This document shows, one piece after another, positions 5,290 through 57,344 of a stretch of DNA of 64,000 nt; position 1 is the stretch's first letter, and every line of letters starts with the position of its first letter. The notes beneath the pieces are model-generated. The model made no database searches. It was not told where the DNA came from and worked only from the letters and a program-made list of their open reading frames with translations. Source of the DNA: Gavia stellata (lineage: Eukaryota); the NCBI RefSeq assembly GCF_030936135.1, contig NC_082627.1:269172-333171 (forward strand). Reading direction: 5' to 3'. The translations under genes and the position numbers were made by a program.

Positions 5290-6250
5290 CTGTGTCAGAG
5301 AGTGAAAATCACTGCCAGGTACCGGGGTCAGACCAGGGGTGTGGGTGCCCCTGGGCTGTGCTGTCAGCTACTGGAGTGTTTGGGGTCCCAGTGCAGCTAC
5401 CGGAGCAAGTGGGAGTCTTTAATATGCAGCCACTATGGCAGGAACAGTCTGTGACCCCAAAACCAGCTACTGGGGGGGACCAGCATGAGCGAAGCGAGTG
5501 AGGGGCTCTGCACTGGCAGCTGAAGCAGGACCATGGGTCACAGCCCGTGTGCCTGGTGCTGGCTGCTGGGAGGGGCGAGGGTCTGATTCCCCCCAAATCA
5601 GGGGGTGTGCATGGGGTGTGCGTGGGTTTTCTCCAGCAAACTTCAGGCTGGACCAGCTGGGAGCAGGGGGACCTTGGGTCTGGGCTGGGGTATCAGGTGG
5701 GCAGGGGTCTGTGCTGGTACGTGGGGGGACCCGCGAGTATGGGGTGCCCATGGGATGGGTGTGTGAGTGCTGCGTGTTTGCAGCGAGCACTGAGCTGGAC
5801 CAGCTGGCGAGTCAGGGACCCGTGGAGTGGGTCAGAGGGCTAGGGTCCAGGCAGGGGTCCTGGGCAGCAGAGGGGCCATACTGATGCTCGGGGGACCCAC
5901 GAGTGTGTGTGTGCTCGTGAACCCTGAGTGTGTGTTTGTGCCTGCATGAGTGACCATCTGTCTTTGCCAGCTCCAGAAGAGGAGGGGACGTGTCTGTGGG
6001 TGCAGGTGTGTGATGGGGGTCCTGTGCATGGGTGCTGCTGGCTGCAGAGTCTTGGCTGTGGCAGGCTGTGTGACCACCTGTGTCTGTACATGTGTGTCTC
6101 TGGGACACCGTGCTCACCTTCACTGCTGGTTGAACCTCCCAAGGGGAAAGCAGCAGCTCTGTCCCTCATTCTGGGCAGAGACCCTGGGTCCCCCAGGGGG
6201 TCCTGGGCTGGAGTTGCTGGAGGCAGTAGCAGCTTCTGACATCCCTTGAC
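5290..6250 (+). repeat. Copy A of a ~1 kb low-copy duplicated segment (partner at 22650-24010)
   Basis: Long collinear blocks shared with 22650-24010, e.g. ccaaaaccagctac, the gagtgaggggctc...ccatgggtcac...ccgtgtgcctggtgctggctgctggg block, and the terminal ctgacatccctt motif. Matching spurious ORFs occur in both copies (5498..5884 vs 23229..23498). Confidence 0.8.
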
Positions 6251-9229: not shown

Positions 9230-9400
9230 TTCAGCCCCTCGAACAGCAGCCACACCCCAGCATCTCCAATGTTGTTATCACCCATGTCCAGCTCCTGCAG
9301 ACTCAGGCTGGTGCTGAGCATGGCAGCCAGGTCCCCAGAGCCAGCACTGGTGATCTGGCAGCACTACAGTCTGCTGGGGGGGCACACAAAGAGGAGCTGG
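9230..9400 (-). pseudogene. LRR exon (about 57 codons) of the NLRP3-like gene
   Basis: The minus strand reads CCQITSAGSGDLAAMLSTSLSLQELDMGDNNIGDAGVWLLFEGLKHPSCRLERLQ, preceded by a ...ctgtag acceptor and followed by a gtgagg donor. This is the ribonuclease-inhibitor-type LRR pair typical of NLRP LRR exons. The ORF track shows it only out of frame. Confidence 0.6.
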
Positions 9401-10130
9401 GAGATTGTCACAGCCACCAAGAGACAGATTCACCCCGCCCACCAGCCTTCCCAGTTCAGTCCCACTAGTCCCTGACCCGGAGCTTCCCCAGTCACTGGGC
9501 ACCTCCCAAGGCTACAGACAAGAAATGGGAATTTCTGAGCACTTTACTTTGTTCACAAAGTCACCTCAGTGTGCACACTAGTCATCCCACCACCGTAGCG
9601 GAATTGTGCAGCTGCATGCCCATGACTCGGCAAAGCACTCTAGAGCCACAGGCGGTGCCCTACATGGCTCAAACATCCAGGCAGAGCTGGCAGAGACAAC
9701 ACAGAGCCTGCACAAGAGCTCCGACATTCGGCACAGCAGCCAGGGTGGCAATAGCAAGGACTGAGAGGGAGCCAAGTGGCCCAGCCCAGGATGACTTGGC
9801 CCTGGCAGAAGAGGGTCTTCTAAAAGAATGTGTCCTGCCCTCTTCTGTTGCCCACTCATGTGGGACTGAACACCCCAGATTCAGCAGACACCAGGGCTGG
9901 GAAAGAGGTGCCTGGAGGGGCACCACTTTCACACACTTCTCTTGCTTTCCGGGCAGGCAGGCAGGGAGCACGGGGTGAGCAGGGACCCAGCGCTGCAGGC
10001 TCACCTCGAAGGCAGCCTCTCTCCACCCCTGCAGGCAGCAGCTGCCAAGCCCCAGTCCCAGCCCAGATCCCATCAAGGGCTGCCCACGAGGCAGCCAGGG
10101 AAATGCCCCAAGGGGCCCCTGTCTCTCACC

Positions 10131-10300
10131 CCATGATCTCCAGCCGGCAGGTGGGTTGCTTCAGCCCCTCACACAGCAGCTGCAGTCCAGGGTCTCCAAA
10201 ATCATTATCACCGAGGTCCAGGTCCTGCAGACTCAGTCTGGTGCTGAATGCAGTGGCCAGGTCCCCACAGCCAGTCCTGGTCAGCTGGCAATATTGCAAC
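10131..10300 (-). pseudogene. LRR exon (about 57 codons) of the NLRP3-like gene
   Basis: ORF 10126..10479(-) contains YRLQYCQLTRTGCGDLATAFSTRLSLQDLDLGDNDFGDPGLQLLCEGLKQPTCRLEIMG, flanked by a cccctacag acceptor and a gtgaga donor. It is strongly NLRP3-LRR-like (compare ...[22 protein letters not shown].L). My hand count gives 170 nt rather than the expected 171, so there may be a 1-nt lesion or a counting error. Confidence 0.65.
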
Positions 10301-10639
10301 CTGTAGGGGAGACACACGAAAAGGAGCCACAAGACCATCACAGGCACCAGCACAGATGTAACCACCCAGCAGCCTCTCAACAGGCCTATGCCCACATGCC
10401 ACGGCCAGAAACCCTGCCCACACTCATGGGATCCAGTGATTGTCCAAGGTCTTGGTGCTGGAGCCACTGCTTGCTCCAAGCCAAGCCCTCAGCCTCCTCT
10501 GAGCCCATTTCTTCTGAGAAGAGAACTAATGGCTCTTTTCAGCAATGCACAATGGAAGGATAAGAGGCAACAGCCATGAGTTCCAACAGAGGAAACTAAT
10601 TAGACTTTAGATCTCTCCGTTCCCTGCTCCCCCACCATG

Positions 10640-10810
10640 AGTGTGGTCAACAATGGAACAGGACTCCAGGGAGGCTGTGGGATCCTCATCCTTGGAAACA
10701 TTCCTAACCCAGTTGGACAAAACTGTGAACAACTGAATCTACAGCAGCCCAGCTTTGAACATGAAGAAGTGCTAGATGACCTCTAGAAGTCCCCTCCTAC
10801 CTAAAGTACT
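10640..10810 (+). mobile_element. CR1 LINE 3' terminal fragment
   Basis: Reads ...SLETFLTQLDKTVNN... then gtgctagatgacctctagaagtcccc, the typical CR1 ORF2 tail and 3' UTR. Confidence 0.6.
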
Positions 10811-11492
10811 TTATGATTCTGGAACTGGGCAAGACCCTGCTCATTAACTGCCCTTCTGCAAATGACTGGAGCCATGGAGAGTCTGGAAAACAGGCCTATG
10901 GAGACATTCCTACAATCCTTCAGACCCTGCCTGCATTCAGGACATACACGTAAGGATGCACACCTTCAGCTGAAAATGCAGCAACACTAACTCCCCCTTT
11001 GCCAACACAATCCCTACTGCTGGACTTGCTCATTCATGGCAGGATTGTGAAATCTCGAGGAAAAGGCTGATGTAAAGATCTCCACTAGTCTCTTCAGGAC
11101 TTCCTTCTGCTGCCCAGCTGCTCTCCTCCTGCTTGGAAGGTAGAGCAGGCAAGATCACTTTAATTGCCCAGCCCACCTGGCTATGTTTCAGGGTCCATTT
11201 CTTCCCACATTAGCTCCGTGCAACCACCCCAGCTTCAGCCATGTCGCTCGCATGTCCCAGTACAATGGTGAGGACCTCAAGCTTAGCAGCACTTTCACCC
11301 ACCTCATGATCTTGAAAAAGATGCCTTCCCTTTCAGGAGTTCATCCCCTCTCTCAGCTCGCCTCTCTCGTGAGTGCCGTTTGGGAGACACCACTTCCATC
11401 TCCACATCCCAGTTGGCAGCAGCAGCTGCCCAGCCCCAGCCCCATTGAGTGCTGCTCAGGAAAATACCCCAAGGAGCTCCCGGATCTCTCAC

Positions 11493-11559
11493 TGCAGTCT
11501 CTCCATCCAGCAGGCTGGATGCTTCAGCCCCTTGCACAGCAGCTGCACTCCCCAGCATT
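11493..11559 (-). pseudogene. 3' half of an NLRP-like LRR exon, cut off from its 5' half by a CR1 insertion
   Basis: The minus strand reads (G)KCWGVQLLCKGLKHPACWMERLQ followed by a gtgaga donor, homologous to the 3' halves of the other two LRR exons. It carries indels relative to them. The CR1 3' end abuts at about 11560-11580. Confidence 0.55.
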
Positions 11560-11579
11560 TCCCACCTGCCTGTCTTGCA

Positions 11580-12442
11580 GGTCACAGAATCATAGAATCA
11601 CAGAATCACTAATGTTGGAAGAGACCTGTAAGATCATCAAGTCCAACCATCAACCAAAAAACACCACCATGCCCATTAAACCATGTCCCACAATGCCACA
11701 TCCACGCGTTCCTTGAATACCTGCAGGGAGGGTGACTCCACCACTTCCCTGGGCAGTTTATTCCAGTGTCTCACCACTCTCTCAGTAAAGAAATTTTTCC
11801 CAATATCCAGTCTGAACCACCCCTGGCGCAACTTGAGGCCATTTCCTCTAGTCCTGTCACTCGTCACTTGGGAGAAGAGGCCAACACCCACCTCTCTGCA
11901 ACCTCCTTTCAGGTAGTTGTAGAGAGCGTTGAGGTCTCCCCTCAGCCTCCTCTTCTCCAGACTGAACAACCCCAGCTCCCTCAGCCGCTCCTCATAAGAC
12001 TTGTGCTCCAGACCCCTCACCAGCTTCGTCGCCCTTCTCTGGACGCGCTCCAGCACCTCAATGTCCTTCTTGTCATGAGGGGCCCAAAACTGAACACAGC
12101 ATTTGAGGTGCGGCCTCACCAGCACCGAGTACAGGGGCACGATCCCCTCCCTACTCCTGCTGGCCACACTATTTCTGATACAGGCCAGGATGCTATTGGC
12201 CTTCTTGGCTAATGGGGCACACTGCTGGCTCATATTCAGCCTGCTGTCAATCAACACCCCCAGGTCCTTTTCTGCGGGGGAGCTTTCCAGCACTCGTCCC
12301 CAAGCCTGTAGCATTGCATGGCCTTGTTTTGGCCAAAGTGCAGGACCTGGCACTTGGCCTTGTTGAACCTCATACAATTGGCCTCGGCCCATCGATCCAG
12401 CCTGTCCAGATCCCTCTGCAGAGCCTTCCGACCCTCCAGCAG
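11580..12442 (-). mobile_element. CR1 LINE, 5'-truncated, with RT C-terminal region and 3' UTR, inserted into an NLRP-like LRR exon
   Basis: ORF 11676..12524(-) contains [24 protein letters not shown]...[42 protein letters not shown]...[31 protein letters not shown], which is CR1 ORF2. The 3' end at 11580-11650 shows catagaatcacagaatc...ttggaagagacc in antisense. Confidence 0.9.
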
Positions 12443-12526
12443 GTCGAGCTCCCTCAGGCTCCGGCTTGTGCTGAGCGCGGCGGCCAGGTCTCTGCAGCTG
12501 GGGCTGGTGAGCCACCACCCCCACAG
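12443..12526 (-). pseudogene. 5' half of the same NLRP-like LRR exon, fused in frame to CR1 RT sequence
   Basis: ORF 12251..12805(-) reads ...[24 protein letters not shown] and then runs straight into CR1 [32 protein letters not shown] ctccccacag acceptor lies at about 12527-12536. Confidence 0.6.
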
Positions 12527-14699
12527 GCTGTGGGGAGATGCACCAAAGAGGGGATGGGGGTAATCAGCCACCAGGACAGACACAGCCCCCCACCACACTC
12601 CCAGCAGCCTCAGTCTGGGGAGGATGGGAGCCCCAAGGAGCCATGGGGACCAGCAGAGCCTAATCCTGGCCTGTGCATGCTGCAGTGCACACAGCTGGGG
12701 TTCAGCTACCCCTTGTTTGGGGTAAGAAAATCCATGTCTGCCTTCCCCACCCCAAGCTGATGTTCCCAGGGGATCAGGGCTGGGTTCCAGTGGACCACTG
12801 GACAACCCGTCTCCCTCAATGCCCCATGGCAGGGCCTTTAGATACCTCCTTGGGGCTTGAGGGCTGTGAACACAAGCTCTATCAGGTGCTCATCTGGACT
12901 TGACTCAACTTCTCTCCACTCTCTGGTCACAGGCAGGAAACACAAGGGCATTATGCACAGGGATTTGGGATTCCCTCTCCAGCAGGATTCAGGTGGGCAG
13001 AATGAGCAGCCTGTTTTAGAGAAAGGCTGGCATTTTGGTTGGTTTGTCTCTAAGAAACAGAACAGTTTTCTCACCTGAGTGTCTTCAATTTGCTCCTTGG
13101 ATTCCCTACAGCTTGATGGGGCAGGGACAGAGGTGATGACTGTGACTACTCTGCCTAGGGTGGCTGCCTGGAGAAGTGAGAGAGGAGATGCTCTGCATGA
13201 GAGGTGGCAAGCTGGAATTGTTCCTGGTTCATAAACATCAAGACAGTATGTCAGGGAGCATGACCTCCCACTCAAAATAGGATGGTGTGTATTCCCAGTT
13301 CACTGCAAATCATCTGAAAAACAGATCTGGCTCACACTGTGCAATGCTGGGTCAGACATTCAAGACATTGAGAGTAATCACTAATGCTGTGTGTTGTACA
13401 CAGCTACCTTAGTGTGACTGTTCACTCGACTCCTGCTCAGCTTTTGGCGTAACACATGGCTCACGCCAAGGCCCGATGTGTGCTGGGAGCAGCACCATTA
13501 GGTCAAAGCAAGAGCAGCATGTTCACTGGACACACTGGACTATGATGGAGAAGCACTCTCACCATTGCCCAGGTAACTATTTCGGTCACAGACATACGAG
13601 TTAGAGAATTTGCAAGATATTGGAGAACATGCAAGGTATTTGAGAAGGTGTAGTGAATCCACAAATTAATGAATCAGAGAATTCATGTGATAGACTAATC
13701 TGTACAACGGGGATTGAGCCTTTGCTTGATTTTTTTTTTAACCAGATGAGCTCATGAAATAAATTTTAATTTACAAAATGTAAATTGTCCTGTAAATTTG
13801 AGAGATCCAAATGAACTGTGATACTTACCCATGCAAAGACTTTTGCTATCCACATACAAAGACTATGCTTGCTCTGGTCAGGTTTGTAGGAGGGATTCCC
13901 AGGGAAGGCAAACTGGTGCCTTTCACTGTCATCAGCAAGGCCTTGAGGAGAGTGGCAGTGGGCTGCCTGGACACTGGACAGAGCTCTCTGGAAATGTCTC
14001 GGTCTCTAAACAGATCCAAAATTTCCTCTGGAATTCCATGAACAGAGACGCTCATGAGAATTGAAACTGCCCCACAGCAAGAGCGAGCGACTCCCTGAGG
14101 AATAGGAGCATATCCACAGACTTCACTTGCACTGCTAATCCTTTCCTTCATAAGATGCTAATCCTTTCCTTTCTGAGCATTAATTATCACTGTTGGGAAA
14201 AGAGCGACTGTGGTCCCCACTGAGCACACAGCTCGCACAGGATAAAACCACAGGGACCGAGTCAGGCCGGGTAATGACAGCTGGTGCTATGAACAGTAGA
14301 CCTGTGCCGTGGTATGAGGGCAAGCAGCTACGTCAGGGAGGTGGGCTATGGGATACAGATGGCCCTTGAGGGCCTGTGTCTGAATGGGTCTGAGAACACT
14401 CAGAGCCACAGCCGGCTCAGAGTCCAGGTGGACATGCTGTTTGGGGATACCCACTCACCAGCCACACACCTGATCACTGCGATTTGGACTAGGACAATAA
14501 ACCTGTTTTCTTCTACTGTGCTTGCATCTGACTTGCTTGTACTGTCAAGGCATTTTTCACCACTCATCCTTTGTGTTGTGGAAGGAACTCTGGGAGCTCT
14601 CTTCCCGACACTGATGGGGAAACAGGTGCAGGGTAATGCCCAATACTACCATCCCTTCCCAAACTCCTTGCCAGTCCCACTGCTGACCGTGGAAGTGCA

Positions 14700-15833
14700 G
14701 CTATGGTGCCATGGAAGCGGCAGCTGCTGCCACTTTTCCAGTTTGACAGATGCCTTCCACGGGAAGAAGACTGTGCTTTGACAGTGCCCAATGCCACAAG
14801 AAAGCCTTGTCACAATGAGAAGGTTGCACCCCATAGGGGAGAGGGGATACAAACAAAACCTGTGCTTTTACAGGTGATCCTGGCTCTGTGATCATTGTAG
14901 AAGTCTGTGGAAGATCATTCCCTTCATCAAGTTCTCATTCAAGGACAGTGCAGATGGCTCAACACATGATGGGTGCAAGGCACATGGTAAAAAGAGCGTA
15001 ATTTCTTTTGACAAAACTGATGGCTTTTCTTGCTTTGTCTTAATCCATTAAGAACTTGTTGAAATATTCCTTCCTCTCAGCTTCTGAAAAACTCAGTATC
15101 TCTGCAAGACACTCCCTCTTTAAACACTGCCCCAGACTTTGAAGAGCTGTTGGTCTTGTTGTGATGAGTAAGGGGGACTCTGAAAGGAGAGTCTTCTCCA
15201 ATAAACTGCTCAGAGTAATTTCCATGGGCTTCTTTTCCTCAGCACTCGAGCATAATTTACATTTTGGTTGATCCAAGGAAAACCTCAGTTCATCAAAGCC
15301 ATCAATGATGAACTTGATGAACTCATCAATGATGAGCTTCTGGGGACTAGCCAGGATCTCTCCAAGTGGTGCCCATTGATCAGGACAGCAGTCTGACATC
15401 AAATCACCCCGACTCAGAATATCCTCTTGCAAAGAAAGGTTGATCTCTCTACAGCTTATGTAGAAAGCATAGTCAAATTGTGCATAAAGGGCTCCTTTTG
15501 CCCTGTCTAACATGATCTTTCTTGATGTCATTGTCTTTCTAGTCCCTGCAGCTCCCACCAGCACAATGATCTGTGGTATTTGCCCTCTTTTATCAGGCTG
15601 AAAAAGAGTTTCCACAGTGATGGCAGGGTTAGCACCTTCCCTTCTGACCTCTGCATGTCTCTGCCTGAGACCCAGGACCTCATGTTCTTGTTCAGTTCTG
15701 TTCTGAGTCTTTGTAACCATCATCAGCTTTGCATATCTGCTGCTTAGAGTCACGTTCTCACCCAGACAAGCGCTCACCTCTTTAAAATTGCAGAACTCTC
15801 TTGCTACATGGTCTCTGTACTTCTGTCTGTAAT
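14700..15833 (-). pseudogene. NACHT-domain exon of the NLRP3-like gene, with in-frame stop codons
   Basis: ORF 15040..15861(-) reads [14 protein letters not shown]...[14 protein letters not shown]...[44 protein letters not shown]...[16 protein letters not shown]...[19 protein letters not shown]. It is collinear with the human NLRP3 NACHT exon (YRKKYRKYVRSRF...[45 protein letters not shown]...LITTRPVALEKLQ...ILGFSEAKRKEYFFKYFSD). A tttctcatttgtttag acceptor sits at 15834-15849. The same frame continues after TAA (15040) as DKARKAISFVKRNYALFTMCLAPIMC* (compare [29 protein letters not shown]), with further TGA/TAG stops. The exon probably extends to about 14100. Confidence 0.75.
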
Positions 15834-17924
15834 CTAAACAAATGAGAAACGTAAGTACCATCTCCTAATAAAGGCAAACTTCTCATTAGCCCCTCATAAC
15901 TAAAATTATTTCCACAGCGCATTCCCGATGCACTGCACTTGTTTTACACATCTGTTTTCAAGACTTCCAAAGACCTTTACAATGGCTTTTGCTGAGCAAC
16001 CATCTGAGCAGGCCTGTCTACCTTTTATTTAGGGAAGGTGGGGGGAACCAGCTCCTCCTCACACAGCTCCATTAAGTACAACCAAGTAGGGTGGAAGGAA
16101 CCCAGTGGGGGAAGACCACCTTCATGGGAAAGACTGGTGTGTATTTACTTGGAAAACAGTTGCTAAGCATACTCCTCTTTCTGTAAAGCACCCTGGCTTC
16201 TGTACCAAAGCAGAAGAGGACTTCCAACTTCATTTCTCAAATGGAAGACACATAGTTAATGGTGCATTCCCTGGCCCAAATCAGACTCGGAGGCCAGAGC
16301 TCCAGCCAACCTCTACTGCAATAAGCAGGTGATACTGTCAGTTGCTTAGAGATCACCCATTGAATCACCTCTATTCTTTCAAACGCTGCCAGAAAAGGAG
16401 AATCTGAAGTGTCCCTTGTATTCCCTAGGTGCGTAGATGACTCCACCTTTATCTCTTGGCTGAGATAGCTGCATGTAGCATAGTAGCTTCTGCTGAAATG
16501 GCACATACCATCAGTTGATGTTTCAGGACTGGGAGCTGAAAATGCAAAATGAACATGAGTATTAGCATAGTGGTGTGGCAGAGTCCCACAGACAACACTC
16601 AGCAGCAGTGGATCCCTCTGGAGCCTGCCCAAAATCCTGGAGGATAAAGCAGAGTTCTGTTACTGATATTGCCACACAAGCACTGAATGCTCCCCGTCCT
16701 CTGCAAATCAGCCTGCCTTGACATTGGGAAGGAAACCCTCTCCTCCCAGGGAACCCCAGGTCCCACATGGGGACATTCTTCCTTCCCAGAGCAGAACAAA
16801 TTGCCTGAGCTGTGGGCCACAACCCACCCCACCTGATTAAGAGGGCAGGACATGTAGAACCCCAGAGAAATCATGGCAGCAGTCCCTGAAATGGGCAAGT
16901 AGGACATTGGCAGGAGGGGGTCGGTACAGTCCTCCCCACTCCCCGGCAAGGAGACCACTAGGCTCCTCTCTTTCTCCCCTTTCCCTGGGACTTGAAATCT
17001 GCTCTTGCCCCTTTGAGAGGAGCTTTCTTTGCACTTTTTCCAGGGAGCAAGAAGAGAGAAGGAACGGAAAGTATTAGTAGTCTCCTGCTTCCTCACGTTC
17101 CTCTTTCTTCTGCCTCAGTTGAGCTGCCATGTCTCTGGTTGATCCCTTCCAGCACACGGATAGCCACCTCCACCCACAGCAACATCTGATCCCCAGCGCT
17201 CGCACCTGCGCTCAGCAGGCGCGACTGTGTCATCAGTTTCCTCAAACCAACCTCTGGGCAGACTGCACGCCTTCGTAACCCATACACGACAACTGAAGTT
17301 TAAACTCCTTACCCATGGTGAGAACCTCATGGGGCTGATAGGCGAGCTCCAGCCGAGCAGGGAGATGACCCCTGAAGGCAGAGCTCAGTCCTGCCCTGCT
17401 GCCCCTGCAGGCGGGTGCTCACCCTATCCCTCCCATCCCCCACTGCCTGTGCCCTGCCTGATGTGACTCCACCCGTGGTGGCTGCAGCAGCTGGGAGCAG
17501 CCCCACTGGAGGGACTGGACATGCAGGGAGGGGAGGGAGCTCCAGTATGCAATGGGCACACACTTCTCTGAAGGGTGGGGAGGGCAACTCCAGTCTGCAG
17601 GTGCCTGTATTGGGCATAATCAGCCGGGTTTTGGCAGTGGGGACCTGCAGGGATGACACTTTGGAGGTGGCCGCGGGCTGCCCGGTGCTGGGCACGGCCG
17701 GCTCCTGCTGCTGTGGCCATGGAGGGCACAGTGCGGTGCTGCGACTATGATGGATGGTTCCCCACTCCACTCTGGACATTGGAGCTATTTTAGAGTTTTC
17801 CTACAAGAAGATAAGACCATCTGAGAGACACCTGCCCGTCCCCTTTGCTTGCTGCTGGCCCACCATGTACCAGTGCAGGAGTGACCTCAGAAGCACTTAC
17901 CACAATCCATGGACTTAAGAGCCA

Positions 17925-21790: not shown

Positions 21791-22649
21791 CTTGGTTACG
21801 ATTTTTGGGTAACAAGGGGATGCTGAATCCTGCTGCCAGGCAGCCCCTGAGCCAGAGGCAGCTCCAGCAGCCTCCCAGGAGCAGGCTGCGGTGGGGTGGT
21901 GAGGTGGCCTCAGCATGGCAGGGGAGTGCAGGGAGAGGCCACCTCCCCTCTGCCTGGGCTGGGGACAGCTTTTCCCGAAAGGAACCTCCCTGAGGAGCGC
22001 ACCTCGTGTGTGCCAGCCTGTGACCTGCTGTGACTGCCCCTGGAGGACAACTGCAGCTCCCCTGTCCTTTCACTGATTCCCCGCTGTCCTCACTCTGGAG
22101 ACCATCACCAGGAACAGTATCCAGATGTGGTCTCAGAAAGGCTGAAGAGTCCCCTCCCTGGCCCTGCAGCCCAGGATGCTCTTGCCCTTCTTGGCTGCAA
22201 GGGCATACTGATGAACCCAGTTCGATGTCTGGTTCACAGGACCCGACAAGGTCCTTTTCTGCAAAGCTGCTTCTGCAGCACAGTCACCCCCAGCCTGTCC
22301 TGTGCCTAGGGCTGTTCAGGCTCAGCTGGCTCTGATGTCTCCCTGGTGGGCCTGGCTCACCCTCACCTCTCTCCAGGGGCTGCACTTTTCTATGTGCCTG
22401 CAGCTCTGCAGGAGAAGAAGGAGCCTGCCTTCTGTGCCAGAAGCCACCAATTTCCATCCCGTCCTGCTGTTGGACCTCAGCAGTGGCACTGACTGACAGG
22501 CTGCCAAGGGACTGCAGGCAAAGCTGGCCTTGGCAACCGATCAGGATGCAAACCAGAGGGTCTGGGGTATAGGAGGTATTCGGGGGGGGTGTGGGTGTAG
22601 GTGTGGGTGGGTGTGTGTTGCGAGGATTAGGTGCCAGCTATTGCCGAGA

Positions 22650-24010
22650 GAGACTGTCACGAATGGATTTGGGGCCAGCAACAGGAGTCAGACCAGGATC
22701 AGTGGGGGTCTGGGCCTCCAGCCAGTGGGGCGGGAACGGTGTGTGTCCCCAAAACCAGCTACCGGGGGGACTGGTGTTGGGGACTGTTTCTTGTACCCCT
22801 TGATGCGAACGGAACACACGTTTGTGCTTAAACAGAGAGATGTGATGGGCCACACATGGGGCAGAGTCCTACCGCCGCAAGGGCTTCTGCAAGGGTTCAC
22901 ACGGATGGGGCAGGAGCCGGTTCCTTCCCCATGCTGGGGCCAGCGCCTGGCCCGTGAGCAGCGGCTCGGGGCCCCTCAGCCCGGCCGTGGGTCCATCCCC
23001 AGCCCAGCTCTGCTGCTGGGGGTGGCCCCTGAGCACCCCGTTGCAGGACCCTCAGGAGTCTATCCTGCAGCATGTCCCATCTCACCAGCCAGGGAACCTG
23101 CACCAGCTCTGGGGCCTGGAGAGGCTCTGCTCCCTGCCAGCTTAACCCCTTCCTGCCTCCCTGCCAGATCGCTCCTTGGTCACCAGGTGCTGGGCAGTTG
23201 CAATTTGGGTTTCCCCTTCACAGGGTGAGTGAGGGGCTCCGTGCCAGTGGCTGGAGCAGGACCATGGGTCACGGCCCGTGTGCCTGGTGCTGGCTGCTGG
23301 GGGGGGGAGGGTCTGATTCCCCCCAAATCAGGGGGTGTGCATGGGGTGTGCGTGGGTTTTCACCAGAAAACCGGGCTGGACCAGATGGCAGCAGGGGGAC
23401 CTCAGGCCCAGGCTGGGGTATCAGGTGGGCAGGGGTCTGTGCTGGTACCTGGGGGGACCCGTGAGTGTGGAGTGCCCATGGGATGGGTGTGTGAGTGATG
23501 CGTATTTGCAGCGAACACCGAGCTGGACCAGCTGGCGAGTCAGGGACCCGTGGAGTGGGTCAGAGGGCTAGGGTCCAGGCAGGGGTCCCGGGTGGCAGCG
23601 GGGACCAGTTGCCAGTGCTTGGGGGACCCACGAGAGTGTGTGTGTGCCTGCATGAGTTGCTGTGTGTCTGTGCCAGCCCTGGAGGAGGAGACGACGTGTC
23701 TGTGGGTGCGGGTGTGTGATGGGGGTCGTGTGTGTAGGTGCTGATGGCTGCAGAGTCTTGGCTGTGGCAGGCTGTGTGACTGTCTGTGGCTGTGTGTCCT
23801 CTGTGTATCCTGTGGCTGTGTGTCTCTGGGACATATGTGCAGCTTTGCTGCTGGTTGGACCTGGCAAGGGGAAAGCAGCAGCCCCATCCCTCAGCCAAGG
23901 CAGAGACCCCAGGTCCCTGGGCTTTGGGCCAGCTGGGCTACAGCAGCCTGGCAGGAGGGTCCTGCCCTGGGGCTGCTGGAGCAAGCGGTCACTGCTGACA
24001 TCCCTTAACA
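22650..24010 (+). repeat. Copy B of the ~1 kb low-copy duplicated segment (partner 5290-6250); carries an extra ~430 bp at 22800-23230
   Basis: See copy A. The duplication ends at ctgacatccctt in both copies. Confidence 0.8.
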
Positions 24011-31099: not shown

Positions 31100-33480
31100 G
31101 GAGCTGAGCAGCCACCTTAACAGGGGTGGTGGCTGAGTAGCCCCTGAGCAGGGGCTGGAGCTGAGGAGCCACCCCACAAAGGGCTGGAGTGAAGCTTAAG
31201 CCAGACACAAGTTGAAGCATGAGGAAGAGCTAGCAATGAGGAGCTGTCAAACAGTGCTTGGAGCTGAGAAACCCCCAGAAAGAGAGAAATAGCTGCCTGA
31301 GCAGGGGCCAGAGCAAAGTATCTCCCTCAGCAGACCCTGTAGTGGGGTTGCAGGAGCCAGAAGTCAGTCAGAGCCTGAGTGGGGGGAAGATGTAAGTTGC
31401 CACCCAAGAGACATAAGACCCCACTGGACCCAAAAAAGAGCTGCAGCGAGTAGCAGCTGGAGCAGAAGCTGGAGGAGAGTGAAGCCAGAATAAGGGCCAG
31501 AGCCCAGAAACTGCCTGAGTAGGGAGCTGAAGATTACAGCAGCCTGAGAAAGGGCTGTGTAGGAACTGGAGGCTGAGCAGGGACCAAAGCTGAGTAAGAG
31601 CTTGAGTGGGGTCTGGAGTCAAGTTGGAACCCAAGTAGGTGTCTGGTCTGAGTAGCCACTTGAGCAGGGTCTAGATTTGAGTTGGAGATTAAGCAGTGGC
31701 CAGTGCTGGGTAAGAGTTTGAGCAGGGTCTGGATTTGAGTCGCAGCCTGAGCAGGGGCCAGATCTGAATAGTTGCTCGAACAGAGCCTGGAGCCAAATTT
31801 CAGCCTGAGGTGGGGCCAGAGCAAAGTAAGAGCTTGAGCAGGGGCTGGAGTTGATTTGGAACCTGTGCAGGCACTGGATTGAAGTACACACTCAAGCAGT
31901 GTCTGTAGCCAAGCTGGAGCCTGAGGTGGGGGCAGGGGTGAGTAAGAGCTTGAGCAGGTGCTGGAGTTGAGGTGGAGAATGAGCAGGAGCCGGATTTGAG
32001 TAGCTGCTTGAGCAGTGTCCAAAGCCAGGTTGGGGTGTGAGCAGGGGCTGGAGCTGACTAAGAGCTTGAGCAGAGGCTGGCTTTGAGTTAGGTCCTGAGA
32101 AGGTGCCAGATCTGAGTAGTCACTCAAGCAGGGTTCAGAGCCAAGTTTGAGTCTGAGCAGGAGCTGGAGCCAAATGAAGCCTGGGCAGGGGCTTGAGCTG
32201 AGAGTGTGAGTAGGGGCTGGAGTCGAGTTGCAGCCTGAGCGGGTGCCAGATCTGAGTTGCCATTCAAGTAGGGACTGGAGCCAAGTTGGAGCCTGGGGTG
32301 GGGCCAGAACTTTGTAAGAACTTGAGCAAGGACTGGAGTTGAGTTGGAGCCTGAATAGATCCAGGTCTGAGTAGTCACTCGAGCAGGGACTGGGGCCTAG
32401 TTATCATCTGAGCAGAGGCTAGAGGTGAGTAAGAACTTGAAAAGGGGTTGGAATCGAGTTGGAGTCTGAGAAGGTGCCAGACCTTACTAGCCACTCAAGC
32501 AGAAGCAGAAGCCAAGTTTGAGTTTGAGCAGGCGCCAGAGCCAAGTTGGAGCCAGGGCAGGAGCTGGAGCTGAGTAAGATCGTGAGCAGGGGCTGGAATT
32601 GTGTTGGAGCTAGATGTGTGTAGCTGCTTGTGCAGGAACTGGAGCCAAGCTTGAGTCTGAGGTGGAGCTTGAACTGATCAAGAGCTAGAGTAGGGGTTGG
32701 AGTTGAGTTGGAACTTGAGCAGGTGCCAGATTTGAGTAGCCTCTTGTGCAGGGGCAGGAGCCAAGTTGGAGCCTGAGGAAGGGCTGGATCCAAGTTACAC
32801 CCTGAGCAAAGGCCAGAGCTGAGTAAGTACTTGAGCAGAGGCAAGGCGGGAGTTGAGTTGAGTCTGAGCAGGCACCAGATCTGAGTGTCCACTCAAGTAG
32901 GGGCCATAGCCAAGTTGGAGCCTGAGCAGGGGCTGGAGCCAAGTTGGAGTCTAGCATGGGCTGGAGCTCAATAAGAGCTTGAGCAGGGGCTGAGGTTTAG
33001 TTGGAGCCTGAGTAAGAGTCAGATCTGAGTAGCTGCATGAGGAGGGCCCAGAGCCAAGTTGGAGCCTGAGCAAGGGCTGGAGCTGAGTAAGAGTTGAGCA
33101 AGGGCTGGATTGAAGGTATAGGCCGTGCAGGTGCCATATCTGAGTAGCTGCAGGAACAGCATCTGGAGCCAGGTATGATCCTGAGGAGGTGCTGGAGCAG
33201 ACTAAGAGCTTGAGAAGAGGCTGAAGCTAATTTGGAGCCTGAGTAGAGGCCCAAGATGAGTAGGAGCTTGAGCAGGGACTGGAGCTGAGATGGACGCAAA
33301 GCAGGTGCCAGAACTAAGTAAATGCTTTTGCAGGGCCGAAGTCAGGTTGGAGCCTTAGCAGGGACCAGAGCTGAGTAAGAGCTTGAGCAGGGGTTGGAGT
33401 TGATTTGGAGTCTAAGCAGGAGCCACAGCGGAGTCACCACTTGAGCAGGGGCTGGATTAATTAGCCCCTGTAGTAGATCA
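31100..33480 (+). repeat. 29-bp satellite array, consensus about CCTGAGCAGGGGCTGGAGCYRAGTWRGAG, roughly 80 copies, degenerate at its 5' edge
   Basis: Consecutive 29-mers, e.g. cctgagcaggggctggagccaagttggag / cctgagcaagggctggagctgagtaagag. Spurious ORFs with an 87-bp (3 x 29) protein periodicity (e.g. 31534..32127, 32419..32892) confirm a non-coding period-29 repeat. Confidence 0.9.
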
Positions 33481-33699
33481 CAGAGGAAAGTATCAGCCCC
33501 ATTAGGGACTATAATGGAGTTTCCATCCAAGCAGCAGCCTGATGTAGATATTTGCCTGAGCAGGATCAAAGCCCAGTGAATACCCAGACAGGCACTGGAG
33601 AAGATGTGGCACCCAGGAAGTGTCCAAGGCCCACACAGCCACTGCTTGGGCAGGTGCTTGGCTCCACATCATTCTTAAGGGTGACTGAGCTCTGGGCCT

Positions 33700-34560
33700 T
33701 GCTTCTTGGTTCCAGTTCCTTCTTGAGCAGCTACTCATATCCAGCTCAGGCTCCAACTTGTATCTATCTGGCCTCTGCTTGAGAGGTTACTCAGATCTGG
33801 CACCTGGTCAGGCTACAACTCAAATTTAGCCGCTGTTTAAGCTCTTATTCAGCTCTGGCTCAGGATGAGAATTCACTTAGCTCCAGCATCTCTTTGAGCA
33901 GCTACTCATATATGGAACTTGCTTGGCCTCCCAATGCACCCCGTCCCTGCTCAGGTTTTACTTAGCATTGGTCCCTGCCCAGGCTTCAACTTGGCTCTGA
34001 CCCCTGCTTGAGTGGCTACTCAGATCATATAACTGCTAAGCTCCAACTCAACTCTAGCAGCTGTTCAAACTCTTACTCAGCTCCGGCCCCTGCTCAACTC
34101 CAGCATGGCACTGGTTGCTAGGGATACAATTGGGCTCTAGTCCCTGCTCTAGGCTCCAGTTCAACTCTAGCAGATGCTCAAGCTCTTACTCAGCTCTGGC
34201 CCCTCCTCAGGCTCCAACTCGGCTTGGTTCTGGCCTCTGGTCAGGCTCCAACTTGGCTCTGGCCCCTTGTAAGAATCCATCATTGCTCCAGTCCCTGCTC
34301 AGGCTCCAACTCAACTCTACCCCCTGCTCAAGCTCTTACTAAGCTTGGGCACCTAATTAGGCTCCAACTTACATTTGGCCCCTGTGAAGGCTCCAACTTG
34401 GCTCCAGCCCCTGCTCAAGAGCTTACTCAGCTCTGGTTTCTGCTCAAGCTCCAACTGGGCTCTAGCCTTTACTTTGTCCAACTCAGCTCCATCCCCCGCT
34501 CACACTCATACTCAGCTGTGGCCCCTGTGTAGGATCCAGATTGTCCCTTTCTCTTCCTTA
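33700..34560 (-). repeat. The same 29-bp satellite in inverted orientation (about 28 copies), followed at 34590-34720 by a short forward-oriented block
   Basis: The plus strand here reads the reverse complement of the unit (ctgctcaggctccaactyrgctccagcccctgctcaagctcttactcag). The orientation switch occurs between about 33480 and 33700. Confidence 0.85.
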
Positions 34561-35163: not shown

Positions 35164-35758
35164 TGTCGTGGTTTAACCCCAGCCAGTGACTGAGCACCAC
35201 ACAGTTGCTTGCTCACTCCCTCCCAGTGGGATGGGGGAGAGAATCGAAAGAGTAAAAGTGAGAAAACTCGTGGGTTGAGATAAAGACAGTTCAATAGGTG
35301 AAGCAAAAGCTGCGCAGGCAAGCAAAGCAAAACAAGGAATTCATTCACTGCTTCCCATCGACAGCCAGGTGTTCAGCCATCTCCAGGAAAGCCGGGCTCC
35401 ATCACGCATAACGGTGACTTGGGAAGACAAACGCCATCACTCCAAACGTCTCCCCCTTCCTTCTTCTTCCCCCAGCTTTATATTGCTGAGCATGACATCA
35501 TATGGTTTGGAATATCCCTTTGGTCAGTTGGGGTCAGCTGTCCCAGCTGTGTCCCCTCCCAACTTCTTGTGCACCCCCAGCCTACTCGCTGGTGGGGCGG
35601 TGTGACAAGCAGAAAAGGCCTTGACTCTGTGTAAGCCCTGCTCAGCAGTAACTAAAACATCTCCGTATTATCAACAGTCTTTTCACACAAATCCAAAACG
35701 CAGCCCTATGCTAGCTACTATGAAGAAAATTATCTCTATCCCAGCCAAAACCAGCACA
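35164..35758 (+). mobile_element. LTR-like dispersed repeat, copy 1 (TGTCGTGGTTTAA...CAGCACA); probable solo LTR
   Basis: About 595 bp, near-identical to 46033-46652 and 56725-57344, with TG...CA termini. I saw no clean TSD for this copy. Confidence 0.7.
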
Positions 35759-36290
35759 GTCACGCAAATCTCCTAGTGGTCTTGGTTTTGTTTTTTTTTT
35801 TTATTTTTTTTATGTCGAATTTGTCAAGTATTGTACAACTCAATGCAAACATCATACCAGGGGAAGATTACTTTCAGGTCCTTTAATTTCCCTAAGTTGA
35901 TTCCATCCAAGGTCACTCTAGATAGTCACTGGGGTCTAGCAAATGATTTCTCAGCCTGAGGGTAGTCATCATCTCCTTGGATGTGTCCCCCTCTAATCCC
36001 GCTTGACTGCTTTGACTATTTTCCTTTAATGGTATTGGCAGCTTGGGTAGACACAGCTTCAACAAGCTATTTGCAGTCAACTCTCCAGGGGAACCAAAGA
36101 TGTTCTGAAGTATGAAGATATTTAGATGGAGCTATCAGAGATGACAGGAATGTCCCAGGAGACCTGTCCCCTTCCTGAGGAGGATCATAGCCAGGCAGGA
36201 CATCGATTTTGTCTGAGCTAATATGAGACAACCAAATACCTTGTTGGGACTTGTGGTGCTATTTAGGCATATTTCACATACTCTGCAGTA

Positions 36291-41279: not shown

Positions 41280-42572
41280 ATGCATTATAGGGTGAACTTT
41301 TTTCAGAAAGCGAATAAAGTGGTTGAGCTGTTGGTACTAAACCTGATTAACCTGATCTCCTTCTACGACAAAGTGACCTGCTTAGTGGATGAGGCAAAGG
41401 CTGTGGGTGTTGTTTACCCAGACTTTAGTAAAGCCTTTGACACCGTTTCCCACAGCATTCTGCTGGAGAAACTGGCTGCTCATGGCTTGAACGGGCACAC
41501 GCCTCGCTCGGTAAAATACTGGCTGGGTGGCCGAGCCCAAAGGGTTGTGGTGAATGGACTTAACTCCAGTTGGCGGCTGGTCACAAATGGTGTTCCCCGG
41601 GGCTCAGTACTGGGGCCAGTTCTCTTTAATATCTTTATCAGTGATCTGGACGAGGGGGTCGAGTGCACCCTCAGTAAGTTTGCACACGACACCAAGTTGG
41701 GCGGGAGTGTTGATCTGCTTGAGGGTCGGAAGGCTCTGCAGAGGGATCTGGACAGGCTGGACGGATGGGCCCAGGCCAATTGTATGAGGTTCAACAAGGC
41801 CAAGTGCCGGGTCCTGCACTTGGGTCACAACAACCCCATGCAACGCTACAGGCTTGGGGACGAGTGGCTGGAAAGCTGCCTGGCAGAAAAGGACCTGGGG
41901 GTGTTGATTGACAGCCGGCTGAATATGAGCCAGCAGTGTGCCCAAGTGGCCAAGAAGGCCAAGGACATCCTGGCTTGTTTCAGAAACAGTGTGGCCAGCA
42001 GGACTAGGGCAGCAATTGTACCCTTGTACTCGGCACTGGTGAGGCTGCACCTCAAATCAAGTGTTCAGTTTTGGGCCCCTCACTATGAGAAAGACATTGA
42101 GGTGCTGGAGCCTGTCCAGAGAAGAGCATGAAGCTGGTGGAAGGATCTAGAGAGCAAGTCCTACGAGGAGCGGCTGAGTGAACTGGGGTTGTTTAGTCCG
42201 GAGGCTCAGGGGAGGCTCAGGGGAGACCTCATTGGTCTCTACAACTACCTCAAAGGAGGTTGTAGTGAGGTGGGTGTTGGTCTCTTTTCCCAGTTAACAA
42301 ATGATAGGACAAGAGGAAACGGCCTCAAGTTGTGCCAGGGGATGTTTAGATTGGACATTAGGAAATACTTCTTCATGGAAAGGGTTATCAAGCACTGGAA
42401 CAGGCTGCCCAGGGAAGTGGTTGAGTCACCATCCCTGAAGGTATTTAAAAGAAATGTAGATGTGGCACTTAGGGACATGGCTTAGCGGTGGACTTGGCAG
42501 TGTTAGGTTAATGGTTAGATTCAATGATCTTAAAGGTCTTTTCCAACCTAAATGATTCTGTGATTCTATGAA
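41280..42572 (+). mobile_element. CR1 LINE, 5'-truncated, with RT domain through the 3' UTR
   Basis: ORFs 41280..42131 and 42189..42485 read [13 protein letters not shown]...[79 protein letters not shown]...[34 protein letters not shown] ... [31 protein letters not shown]. The 3' UTR ends in gattctgtgattctatg octamers at about 42572. Confidence 0.92.
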
Positions 42573-45500: not shown

Positions 45501-46032
45501 CATTCCCGTGGTGGTTACCTGGGGGATGTTTCTTGCAAACTGCAGGGGCCTTGAGAAACCATCTGCCCCACATGTCTTCAGGGCACCCCGAGGAACAGCT
45601 GATGGCACTTCTGTTCACTCAAGTTCATCTCATTGCACACATGAGATGTGCAAGCAAAGTCTGTGATGCAAGAAGAAACTTCTGACCTAGCCTTTCGGTG
45701 TCGCTCTGTGGAGGGACAAACCACCTCTCTGAGCCGGGGCGAGCGGCCAGTGCTGGCACAAGGGGCTGTTCTGTGACAGTTGCCCTGGGGCAGCTTCCCC
45801 AGGGTGTCCAGGGAACCGACCAGGTCCTGCTCTGCCGGTCCTCATGTGTCTGCCAGGAGGCCTGTGACACACGGCTGTGTGTCCCCATCCTGCACACTCA
45901 CACAGTTGACCTCTACACTGGTGTTTTCCTCTCCTGAACACTTTCCAGCCCAACCCCTCCCCAGATCTGGCCCCCACCCCTGCCCTTACCCCAGCTCAGC
46001 CCAGCAGAGCAGCCCAGTCTCGGCTGGCCCCC

Positions 46033-46652
46033 TGTCGTGGTTTAAGCCCAGCTGGCAACTAAGCACCACACAGCCGCTCACTCACTCCCCCCAGGTGGGG
46101 TGGGGGAGAGAACCAGAAGAGTAAAAGTGAGAAAACTCGTGGGCTGAGATAAAAACAGTTTAATAAGTAGAGCAAAAAACACCGCGCGGAGAAGCAAAGC
46201 AAAAGAAGGAATTCATTCACCACTTCCCGTCGGCAGGCAGGTGTTCAGCTATCTGCAGGGAAGCAGGGCTCTATCACGCGTAGCGGTTGCTCGGGAAGAC
46301 AAACGCCATTACTCCGAATGTCCCCACCTTCCTTCTTCCTCCCCCAGCTTTATATACTGAGCATGATGTCATATGGTATGGAATATCCCTTTGGTCAGTT
46401 GGGGTCAGCTGTCCCGGCTGTGTCCCCTCGCAACTTCTTGTGCACCCCCAGCCTCCTCACTGGTGGGGTGGTGTGAGGAGCAGAAAAGGCCTTGGTGCTG
46501 TGTGAGCCCTGCTCAGCAGTAACTAAAACATCCCTGCTTTATCAACACTGTTTCCAGCCCAAATCCAAAACACAGCCCCATTCAGTCCAAAACACAGCCC
46601 CATACTAGCTGCTATGAAGAAAGTTAACCCCATCCCAGCCAAAACCAGCACA
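46033..46652 (+). mobile_element. LTR-like dispersed repeat, copy 2, flanked by a 6-bp TSD GGCCCC
   Basis: 620 bp with TG...CA termini. GGCCCC lies immediately before TGTCGTGG and immediately after ...CAGCACA. Confidence 0.8.
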
Positions 46653-47319
46653 GGCCCCAGAGGGATCCCCCTGTGCTGTGTATGTCCCAGCTGATGCCCA
46701 GAGAGGAGCACATATGTATTTCACCGATCATTGCGGCAGGGGGGCAACGGGGGCCAAGAAACTCTGCTCGGGACAGCGCATGACTAAACAACACTGGTGC
46801 CCAGGCACTACAGTGGATGATCCTCAGCACGGCTTTGTCAACTGTCCTGGGCACATCAGAGGTCTCGCTGCGACAGACACCTGGAGGGAGGATGCTGCCT
46901 TTCAGGCCCCAGCTCCAGGGAGTGCCTCTCCCTGGGACTCAGGGGATGGCGGCCTCTGGTCTGGGAACTGAGGAGCAGGTGAAGGTGTGTGAGGAGGGGA
47001 GCAGTCAGTGCAGCATCGAGAATGGCAAAGAGGAGAGAGACAGGGTCCTTGCGGAGACCCCGCAGAGGAGAGATCCCGGTCACTTTGGAGCAAGGAAGTA
47101 GGGACAGCAGGAGACCACCCCAACGGAGCACTGACTGGAGAGTTCCTGCCCAGGGGGAGGCTGGGGACTTGTGCTGCTGGAGGAAGGCTCCTTCTAAGCT
47201 GCAGATCTGCAGCTGCAGAGCAGGGACTCTGCTCTGGCAAGAGGTGAAGGAGCAAGCAGGGCTGGGGCAGGCTGGAAGAAGGTGGACGGGCTCTGCCAAA
47301 ATCTAAGGGAGAAAATCAT

Positions 47320-56240: not shown

Positions 56241-56724
56241 GAAGTGGACTTCAGAGGAGGTAAAATGGACTTAATATACAGCTGATGAGTGTATCACATC
56301 CCCCTGCGTCTGCGTGCAGTCATTCTCCAAGTAAAGCTGTGAGTTGGTGCCCACGGGCTGAAACATGCAGCTACAGACTTCAGTGCAGAAAGCTCTGATT
56401 TGAACGAGGCTGCTGTAAGTGCCAGGTGGTTGATGAGAGAAAAGGTGGGGCTGGGGGTGGGGCTGAAGAATGGCCATAGATCATCAACATAAAGAAAGGG
56501 TCCTGACTTTTGCGTACATTCGAAGTCCACTGGAGACGCTCAGGATCAATATGGACTGAGGATTTCTGATCTCACAGAATGTGTAAGTAGAAAAATGAAG
56601 AAAAGTGGGGGGAAAAATTAATCCTTTCTTACTGTTTAGTAGTGACATCTTTTGACTTTGACTGCATTCCCGAAACCTCTTGTATTAACCACATGAGAAC
56701 TGAAGGCCTAAAGGAAAATGATGC

Positions 56725-57344
56725 TGTCATGGTTTAAGCCCAGCCGGCAACTAAGCACCACACAGCCGCTCACTCACTCCCCTCAGGTGGGGTGGGGGAG
56801 AGAACCAGAAGAGTAAAAGTGAGAAAACTCGTGGGCTGAGATAAAAACAGTTTAATAGGTAGAGCAAAAAACACCTCGCGGAGAAGCAAAGCGAAAGAAG
56901 GAATTCATTCACCACTTCCCGTCGGCAGGCAGGTGTTCAGCTATCTGCAGGGAAGCAGGGCTCTATCACGCGTAGCGGTTGCTCGGGAAGACAAACGCCA
57001 TTACTCCGAATGTCCCCAGCTTCCTTCTTCCTCCCCCAGCTTTATATACTGAGCATGATGTCATATGGTATGGAATATCCCTTTGGTCAGTTGGGGTCAG
57101 CTGTCCCGGCTGTGTCCCCTCCCAACTTCCCATGCACCCCCAGCCCCCTCACTGGTGGAGTGGTGTGAGGAGCAGAAAAGGCCTTGGTGCTGTGTGAGCC
57201 CTGCTCAGCAGTAACTAAAACATCCCTGCTTTATCAACATTGTTTCCAGCCCAAATCCTAAACACAGCCCCATACAGTCCAAAACACAGCCCCATACTAG
57301 CTGCTATGAAGAAAGTTAACCCCATCCCAGCCAAAACCAGCACA
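56725..57344 (+). mobile_element. LTR-like dispersed repeat, copy 3, flanked by a 5-bp TSD GATGC
   Basis: 620 bp with TG...CA termini. GATGC lies immediately before TGTCATGG and immediately after ...CAGCACA. Confidence 0.8.

Follow-up and report, generated by a model that had tools for sequence, protein, structure and literature searches.

We analyzed a window of 64,000 nucleotides from the genome of the red-throated loon, Gavia stellata (assembly GCF_030936135.1, contig NC_082627.1, positions 269,172 to 333,171 of the forward strand). Coordinates given below are positions within this window. Its minus strand carries the relic of an NLRP3-like gene that extends from about 17361 to 9199, a wider span than the 9230–15833 marked by the first-pass annotation. 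What survives of the gene is its pyrin domain (PYD) exon, now frameshifted, a NACHT exon reduced to a stump of 952 nt, a short linker exon, and three leucine-rich repeat (LRR) exons of 171 nt. It is very probably a non-processed pseudogene of a bird-specific NLRP3-like paralog, designated group A, which is annotated as “NLRP12-like” in Calonectris borealis and Nyctibius grandis. The relic has collinear flanks and the same downstream neighbor as these genes, falls into one clade with them at 100% bootstrap support, and shares +4 and −2 indels in the PYD exon.

Structural analysis of the relic

Intact relatives of the relic begin with the PYD exon (exon 1), which is 282 nt long in the Numenius gene of group B, a sister paralog described below. 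This exon is followed by a short linker (exon 2; 24–27 nt), the large NACHT exon (exon 3; 1704–1749 nt), a second linker or transition LRR (exon 4; 84–93 nt), a series of LRR exons (exons 5–11, seven exons of 171 nt each in group A), and a short last coding exon (exon 12). When mapped to their loci, the exons of the orthologs matched with 100% identity and were bounded by canonical splice sites. Human NLRP3 likewise combines a large NACHT exon with 171-nt LRR exons. Five exons of the intact relatives (6–7 and 10–12) have no counterpart in the loon relic.

The remaining 5′ 952 nt of the NACHT exon (15834–14883) encode FISNA, the nucleotide-binding domain (NBD), and the start of HD1. A 273-amino acid open reading frame (ORF) with an ATG start lies uninterrupted at 15861–15040. 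Human NLRP3 is its best match among solved structures (E about 1e-53 for PDB chains, with residues 9–273 aligned to human residues 134–388), whereas the next best chains from other proteins scored much lower (2e-33 and 3e-33, NLRP6). Pfam assigned NACHT (122 bits) and FISNA (30.3 bits) to the loon ORF, and tblastn with residues 12–322 of the Nyctibius protein revealed 75% identity to the stump. The collinearity of FISNA and NACHT with human NLRP3, which the first-pass annotation put at more than 250 amino acids, extends over 265 residues. Together with the LRR exons, these matches confirm its view that the locus holds an NLRP3-like NACHT-LRR gene relic. Two of the motifs on which that view was based, LITTRP and FSEAxRKEYF, are conserved, but the linker cited as YRKKYRKYV is the human sequence and reads YRQKYRDHV in the loon.

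The stump has accumulated several lesions. Its Walker A motif, or P-loop, (15555–15532) reads GAAGTRKT, in which arginine replaces the glycine that precedes the lysine of GxxxxGK[ST]; a functional Walker A motif is thus lacking in the loon. Orthologs read GAAGIGKT or GAAGMGKT at this position, the former being found at the DNA level in Calonectris and in a second bird represented by locus L001 (see below). Three nonsense codons interrupt the exon: TAA at 15042–15040, TGA at 14961–14959, and TGA at 14937–14935, which correspond to Glu, Trp, and Gln, respectively, in Calonectris. The frame is therefore broken by TAA and TGA as first proposed, but the TAG codons that were also ascribed to the NACHT exon sit in the linker and LRR exons and none occurs in the NACHT exon itself. 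An 18-nt in-frame tandem duplication relative to Calonectris is present near 15330–15300.

The NACHT exon had been thought to reach about 14100; however, homology ends at 14883 owing to a 1.7-kb deletion. The lost sequence corresponds to 12685–14407 of the Calonectris locus (L002), where ~785 nt at the 3′ end of the NACHT exon are followed by the ~940 nt with which intron 3 begins. Alignment by blastn is collinear on both sides of the deletion (L002 10828–12684 with 16777–14883 and L002 14408–16838 with 14874–12439), and the junction is occupied by a 9-nt filler, CAGGATCAC (14882–14874). WHD and HD2, which are present in Calonectris, were removed from the loon gene by this event. Permissive tblastn and blastn searches for the missing half of the NACHT region (residues 323–583 of the Nyctibius protein) found no match in 13167–14883 or elsewhere in the window. 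The remainder of intron 3 (14873–13167) aligns to intron 3 of Calonectris. An alternative view of 13167–14883 as an insertion was rejected, as the stretch is what the deletion left of intron 3.

The first-pass annotation advised a search for a PYD exon above 15833, and a five-way DNA alignment with the intact PYD exon of Numenius located a remnant at 17361–17098. This exon contains a 4-nt insertion (17176–17173) common to the loon, L001, and Calonectris; a 2-nt deletion (between 17137 and 17136) common to all four group A sequences, including Nyctibius; and a 2-nt deletion at 17265/17264 that is specific to the loon. Its start-codon region could not be aligned. As it stands the exon is out of frame and no PYD can be read from it; after repair of the frame, it matched Pfam PYRIN with 25.3 bits (cutoff 22.9), compared with 66.9 bits for the intact group B exon of Numenius. 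The annotated group A proteins P0024 (Nyctibius), P0170 (Calonectris), and P0181 gave no match to Pfam PYRIN, whereas group B proteins did. Because the PYD-exon indels are common to them, the group A carriers inherited the frameshifted exon from an ancestor that predates the divergence of their orders. The short linker exon 2 is represented by a remnant at 16541–16520, which was identified by alignment to Calonectris exon 2 (L002 11065–11088); its acceptor has changed from AG to AT.

Downstream of intron 3, the 90-nt exon 4 (linker or transition LRR; 13166–13077) retains conserved splice sites and contains two TAG codons (13157–13155 and 13148–13146). LRR exon 5 is split into a 5′ half (12529–12439) and a 3′ half (11582–11492) that carries a +2 frameshift relative to Calonectris. 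The ortholog of Calonectris exon 8 (10299–10129) is 171 nt long, has an open frame, keeps its AG acceptor and GT donor, and is 82% identical to residues 786–842 of the Nyctibius protein. That of exon 9 (9369–9199), also 171 nt, has a TAG at codon 2 (9366–9364). Splice sites of the LRR exons are conserved with Calonectris, with AG or AG-equivalent acceptors and GT donors, and Pfam detected LRR_6 in the relic (55.5 bits). The claim of at least three RNase inhibitor-type LRR exons with splice sites on the same strand is met by these three 171-nt exons.

The element that splits exon 5 (12438–11583; 856 bp) is a 5′-truncated CR1 in the orientation of the gene, in agreement with the first-pass annotation. 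Its junctions display an ATTCTRTG octamer tail and an ACCTGC target-site duplication, and it is 83% identical to a CR1 copy at 41712–42571. The ATTCTRTG octamer is a hallmark of CR1. A Pfam search with the ORF at 11676–12524 in this region returned no family, and the identification as CR1 is based on the octamer tail and on similarity to a copy that bears reverse transcriptase. The insertion is absent from exon 5 of Calonectris. The similar copy elsewhere in the window retains a 283-amino acid ORF (41280–42131, plus strand) with a reverse-transcriptase domain (RVT_1, 64.6 bits).

Exons 6–7 are absent between 11492 and 10299. Farther downstream, 825 nt (8025–7201) stand in place of ~6 kb of Calonectris (L002 25671–31630) that encompass LRR exons 10–11 and the final coding exon. 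Because this 825-nt stretch matches none of the comparison loci L001–L004, the gene has lost its 3′ end. A search below 9199 for the last coding exon or further LRR exons found none.

Across all exons, the reading frame is disrupted by at least six in-frame stops, several frameshifts, the CR1 insertion, and missing exons. The gene is dead, and splicing offers no rescue because the stops are located inside exons, at codons that have sense in the intact orthologs. Two other origins for this structure were ruled out. The relic is not a processed (retro-)pseudogene because its introns are retained and can be aligned to those of Calonectris, and it is not an assembly artifact because the independent lesions, which include a transposable-element insertion and kilobase-scale deletions, are too numerous.

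Relationship to other NLRP3-like genes

Relatives of the relic were found by an exhaustive profile-free representative search with the 273-amino acid ORF and a follow-up homolog search; the first homolog search with this ORF returned short fragments only and no full-length bird protein. The follow-up search also brought to light three other sets of NLRP3-like proteins in birds. The Nyctibius grandis “NLRP12-like” protein XP_068280868 (P0024, 1035 amino acids), encoded at locus L003 together with XP_068280867 (P0168), is 79% identical to the loon ORF. In Calonectris borealis, an “NLRP12-like” protein of 1058 amino acids (P0170) is encoded at L002 (CAXMUC020000008.1), which is collinear with the window from 25235 down to 1 on the minus strand (77–88% identity) and ends in the same ACADM-like neighbor. 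The Calonectris and Nyctibius genes resemble the loon relic in their flanks, downstream neighbor, exon layout, and PYD-exon frameshifts, and their proteins are 75–79% identical to the NACHT stump. They differ from it in having uninterrupted ORFs of 1036–1058 amino acids and seven LRR exons, where the loon has stops, frameshifts, the CR1, and two or three large deletions.

A neighbor-joining tree of the FISNA-NBD region (312 columns, 200 bootstraps) joined the relic with Calonectris (82%) and recovered group A, composed of Podargus, Nyctibius, Calonectris, and the loon, with 100% support. Groups A and B formed a clade (100%), as did A and B plus copies from ostrich and rhea (100%). All bird copies (groups A, B, C, and D) clustered together with 75% support and were nested among sauropsid copies. 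Mammalian NLRP3 and NLRP12 grouped apart from the sauropsids (93%; 98% with further mammalian NLRP copies). With the two mammalian genes clustered to the exclusion of every sauropsid copy, no bird copy is a clean 1:1 ortholog of NLRP3. The relic, which is nested in the bird/sauropsid clade, is no exception. It further differs from human NLRP3 in being non-functional and in its genomic neighborhood.

Group B occurs in gulls, waders, storks, ibis, frigatebird, and owls (including Rissa, Numenius, Mycteria, Ciconia, and Theristicus). A penguin protein, P0085, resembles group B and was too short for the tree. Group B proteins are about 60–64% identical to those of group A, and the two sister paralogs (100%) have the same exon layout. 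Unlike group A, group B genes possess an intact PYD exon and more LRR exons, and they lie near the end of a 14–16-Mb chromosome. Group C comprises the proteins that UniProt names NLRP3 in Aquila, Falco, Accipiter, and owls, for which the NCBI label is now NLRP6; it is also found in relatives of the loon (penguins, storks, pelicans, and gannets). Although groups A and C belong to the same NLRP3-like subfamily and to one bird clade, they are only about 45–47% identical, and group C keeps its PYD in most birds. Because the UniProt NLRP3 proteins fall within it, group C is the “bird NLRP3” of Billman et al. 2024, who counted a single NLRP3-like gene in each of the four birds that they took as representatives (Table 1, PMC11258412).

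Constraint and independent decay

Between Calonectris and Nyctibius, the ratio of nonsynonymous to synonymous substitution rates (dN/dS) of the NACHT exon was 0.35 (bootstrap interval 0.26–0.46), which indicates that the group A NACHT exon has been under purifying selection after loss of the PYD. The ratio was 0.57 (0.30–1.11) on the loon branch and 0.31 (0.14–0.71) on the Calonectris branch; the loon value is compatible with a late relaxation of constraint.

Locus L001 (ENA metagenome assembly ERZ27275487, contig k117_670595) represents bird host DNA with the same group A gene. The locus diverges less from Calonectris (dS about 0.11) than from the loon (0.14). Codons 49 and 316 of its copy have become TGA and TAG, respectively, and three deletions remove 2, 1, and 9 nt. 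Because this set of lesions differs from that of the loon, the group A gene died independently in a second bird.

Interpretation of the locus

The ancestral gene was laid out like NLRP3: a PYD exon, a short exon, a NACHT exon of ~1.7 kb, and an exon of ~90 nt preceded seven LRR exons of 171 nt, and a short exon closed the gene. The frameshift of the PYD exon dates to an ancestor shared by the carriers, and the NACHT exon stayed constrained between the two species whose copies look intact. The loon lineage then acquired its NACHT lesions, namely the three nonsense codons, the Walker A glycine-to-arginine change, and the 1.7-kb deletion of WHD and HD2. Nonsense codons in exons 4 and 9, the CR1 and frameshift in exon 5, and loss of exons 6–7 and 10–12 complete the decay. 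The relic would be expected to yield no functional protein. For its inflammasome capacity, the loon presumably relies on the universal bird NLRP3 (group C) at another site in its genome, and the position of the relic beside olfactory receptors is probably incidental.

Several points weigh against this interpretation. That Gavia has an intact copy of group C (or B or D) is taken from the published statement that NLRP3 is retained in all birds searched (PMC11258412); neither list of 120 best homologs contains a Gavia protein, which says nothing for or against such a copy. On the loon branch, dN/dS is not significantly raised (the probability that it is higher than on the Calonectris branch is about 0.87). 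“Intact,” as applied to the Calonectris and Nyctibius genes, denotes an uninterrupted annotated ORF, and the tree is a neighbor-joining tree built on about 312 columns of one region.

A different history is conceivable in which the relic marks the ancestral amniote site of NLRP3 beside olfactory receptors, conserved in synteny with human 1q44, and the functional bird gene has moved elsewhere. We consider this improbable. In eutherians, NLRP3 is indeed flanked by Znf496 and Or2b11, but this arrangement is reported as confined to eutherians, and in marsupials and monotremes the gene adjoins Rps5 (PMC13076529); the bird NLRP3 locus is not that of mammals (PMC11258412). Upstream of the relic, at distances of 19–44 kb, are two intact olfactory receptor ORFs (window positions 36.3 and 59.6 kb): 37229–36294, an exact match to Gavia stellata XP_059688442 (OR10AG1-like), and 60534–59560, an exact match to Gavia stellata XP_059688443 (OR14A16-like), both on the minus strand. 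Receptors occur only on this side, such that the relic lies at the edge of the cluster rather than embedded in it, as the first-pass annotation had suggested. By name, the loon neighbors are ACADM-like, OR10AG1-like, and OR14A16-like rather than ZNF496 and OR2B11, with no test made of the orthology of the two receptors to OR2B11.

The gene nearest to the relic is the ACADM-like gene downstream, which is the conserved neighbor in the loon, Calonectris, and Nyctibius. We take this acyl-CoA dehydrogenase gene to be ACADM from the human sequence. Its 5′ end lies within the window on the minus strand, with a coding exon at 119–24 (MLQTIAGHGWRS…) and a CpG island at ~1000–2000 (GC 0.715, CpG observed/expected 0.86). 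The upstream neighbor in Nyctibius is a proteasome-type AAA ATPase gene and not an olfactory receptor. No olfactory receptor sequence was found in the flanks of L001–L004, which include those of Calonectris, Nyctibius, and Numenius, and the alligator NLRP3 locus has no neighbors within 10 kb.

The distribution of copies in the palaeognath Rhea pennata also argues against an ancestral site at this position. On its 70-Mb chromosome CM051765.1, an A/B-type gene at 43.78 Mb (L006), which adjoins a gene with an SRCR domain, lies about 0.9 Mb from the universal copy at 42.83 Mb (L007), which adjoins INCENP. Because these two copies share one macrochromosome, the arrangement points to an origin of the paralogs by local duplication, probably followed by relocation in Neoaves. 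The grouping of bird copies in one clade (75%), nested among sauropsid copies, likewise speaks against a displaced ortholog. Conserved synteny with human 1q44, as first proposed, is not borne out.

It is highly improbable that the locus still functions in reduced form, either through the 273-amino acid FISNA-NACHT ORF or through a regulatory transcript. The ORF is open from its ATG, and LRR exon 8 retains both an open frame and its splice sites. However, that ATG falls in sequence that is intron in Nyctibius, the Walker A glycine has become arginine, WHD and HD2 are deleted, the PYD is frameshifted, the acceptor of exon 2 is lost, and the 5′ end lacks a CpG island (CpG observed/expected 0.30 at 17000–17600).

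That the relic is the decayed true NLRP3 of the loon, and that loons have lost NLRP3 altogether, is scarcely credible: human NLRP3 is the best solved-structure match and neither list of 120 best homologs includes a Gavia NLRP protein, but the relic belongs to group A (100%), separate from the group C that holds the named NLRP3 proteins of Aquila, Falco, Accipiter, and owls together with the copies of the loon’s relatives, and Billman et al. found NLRP3 in all birds they searched (PMC11258412). The first-pass annotation had left the choice between a decayed true ortholog and a dead paralog; placement in group A and the collinear Calonectris locus decide for the latter.

Taken by itself, the loon relic is an unremarkable NLR pseudogene; its value is as a marker. 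The published count is a single NLRP3-like gene in birds (Table 1, PMC11258412, four species), whereas at least four bird lineages, A to D, are distinguished here. These observations suggest that Neoaves carry more NLRP3-like paralogs than the literature counts, and that a PYD-less lineage was kept in some orders and lost piecemeal elsewhere. The loon relic and the independently dead copy of the second bird show that NLRP3-like losses were recent and repeated rather than a single ancient event. We tentatively extend this view, with slightly less than even confidence, to a scenario in which many Neoaves have extra NLRP3-like paralogs and group A has been PYD-less since or before the split of Strisores and Aequornithes, remaining constrained in shearwater and potoo and decaying independently in the loon and the second bird. 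If this is true, the loon relic offers a snapshot of an ongoing, lineage-by-lineage trimming of the bird inflammasome repertoire.

The loss of the PYD from group A, with a constrained NACHT exon, parallels the reported loss of the PYD from NLRP3 of songbirds and falcons and bears on how bird NLRPs signal without ASC. Should the intact group A copies be expressed, their carriers, which lack ASC as well, would possess an NLRP3-like sensor that has long persisted without a PYD. The separation of mammalian NLRP3 and NLRP12 from every sauropsid copy calls for caution in carrying the mammalian names NLRP3, NLRP12, and NLRP6 over to birds.

Other features of the window

Positions 22000–24000 are GC-rich (0.60–0.64) and about 84% conserved with Calonectris; with a CpG observed/expected ratio of 0.21–0.28, the stretch is not a CpG island. 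A 232-amino acid ORF within it (22530–23228) shows no evidence of coding. The relic is bracketed by a direct repeat of ~700 bp (5496–6192 and 23227–23917, 81.7% identical), which may be a segmental duplication or an old repeat element. The repeat pair is older than the split between loon and shearwater, because the Calonectris locus contains the pair as well (L002 1205–1964 and 33683–34375).

Between the relic and the first olfactory receptor, 31567–34500 is occupied by a degenerate tandem array with a unit of 115–116 bp (65–75% matches) and strong positive GC skew. A unit of ~620 bp is present three times, at 35164–35759, 46032–46653, and 56724–57345. Each of the two intact olfactory receptor genes has a copy within a few kb of its 3′ end, and the copy at 46 kb has no receptor ORF nearby. 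The last two copies are 97% identical; the arrangement suggests a recent duplication of the unit within the olfactory receptor cluster.

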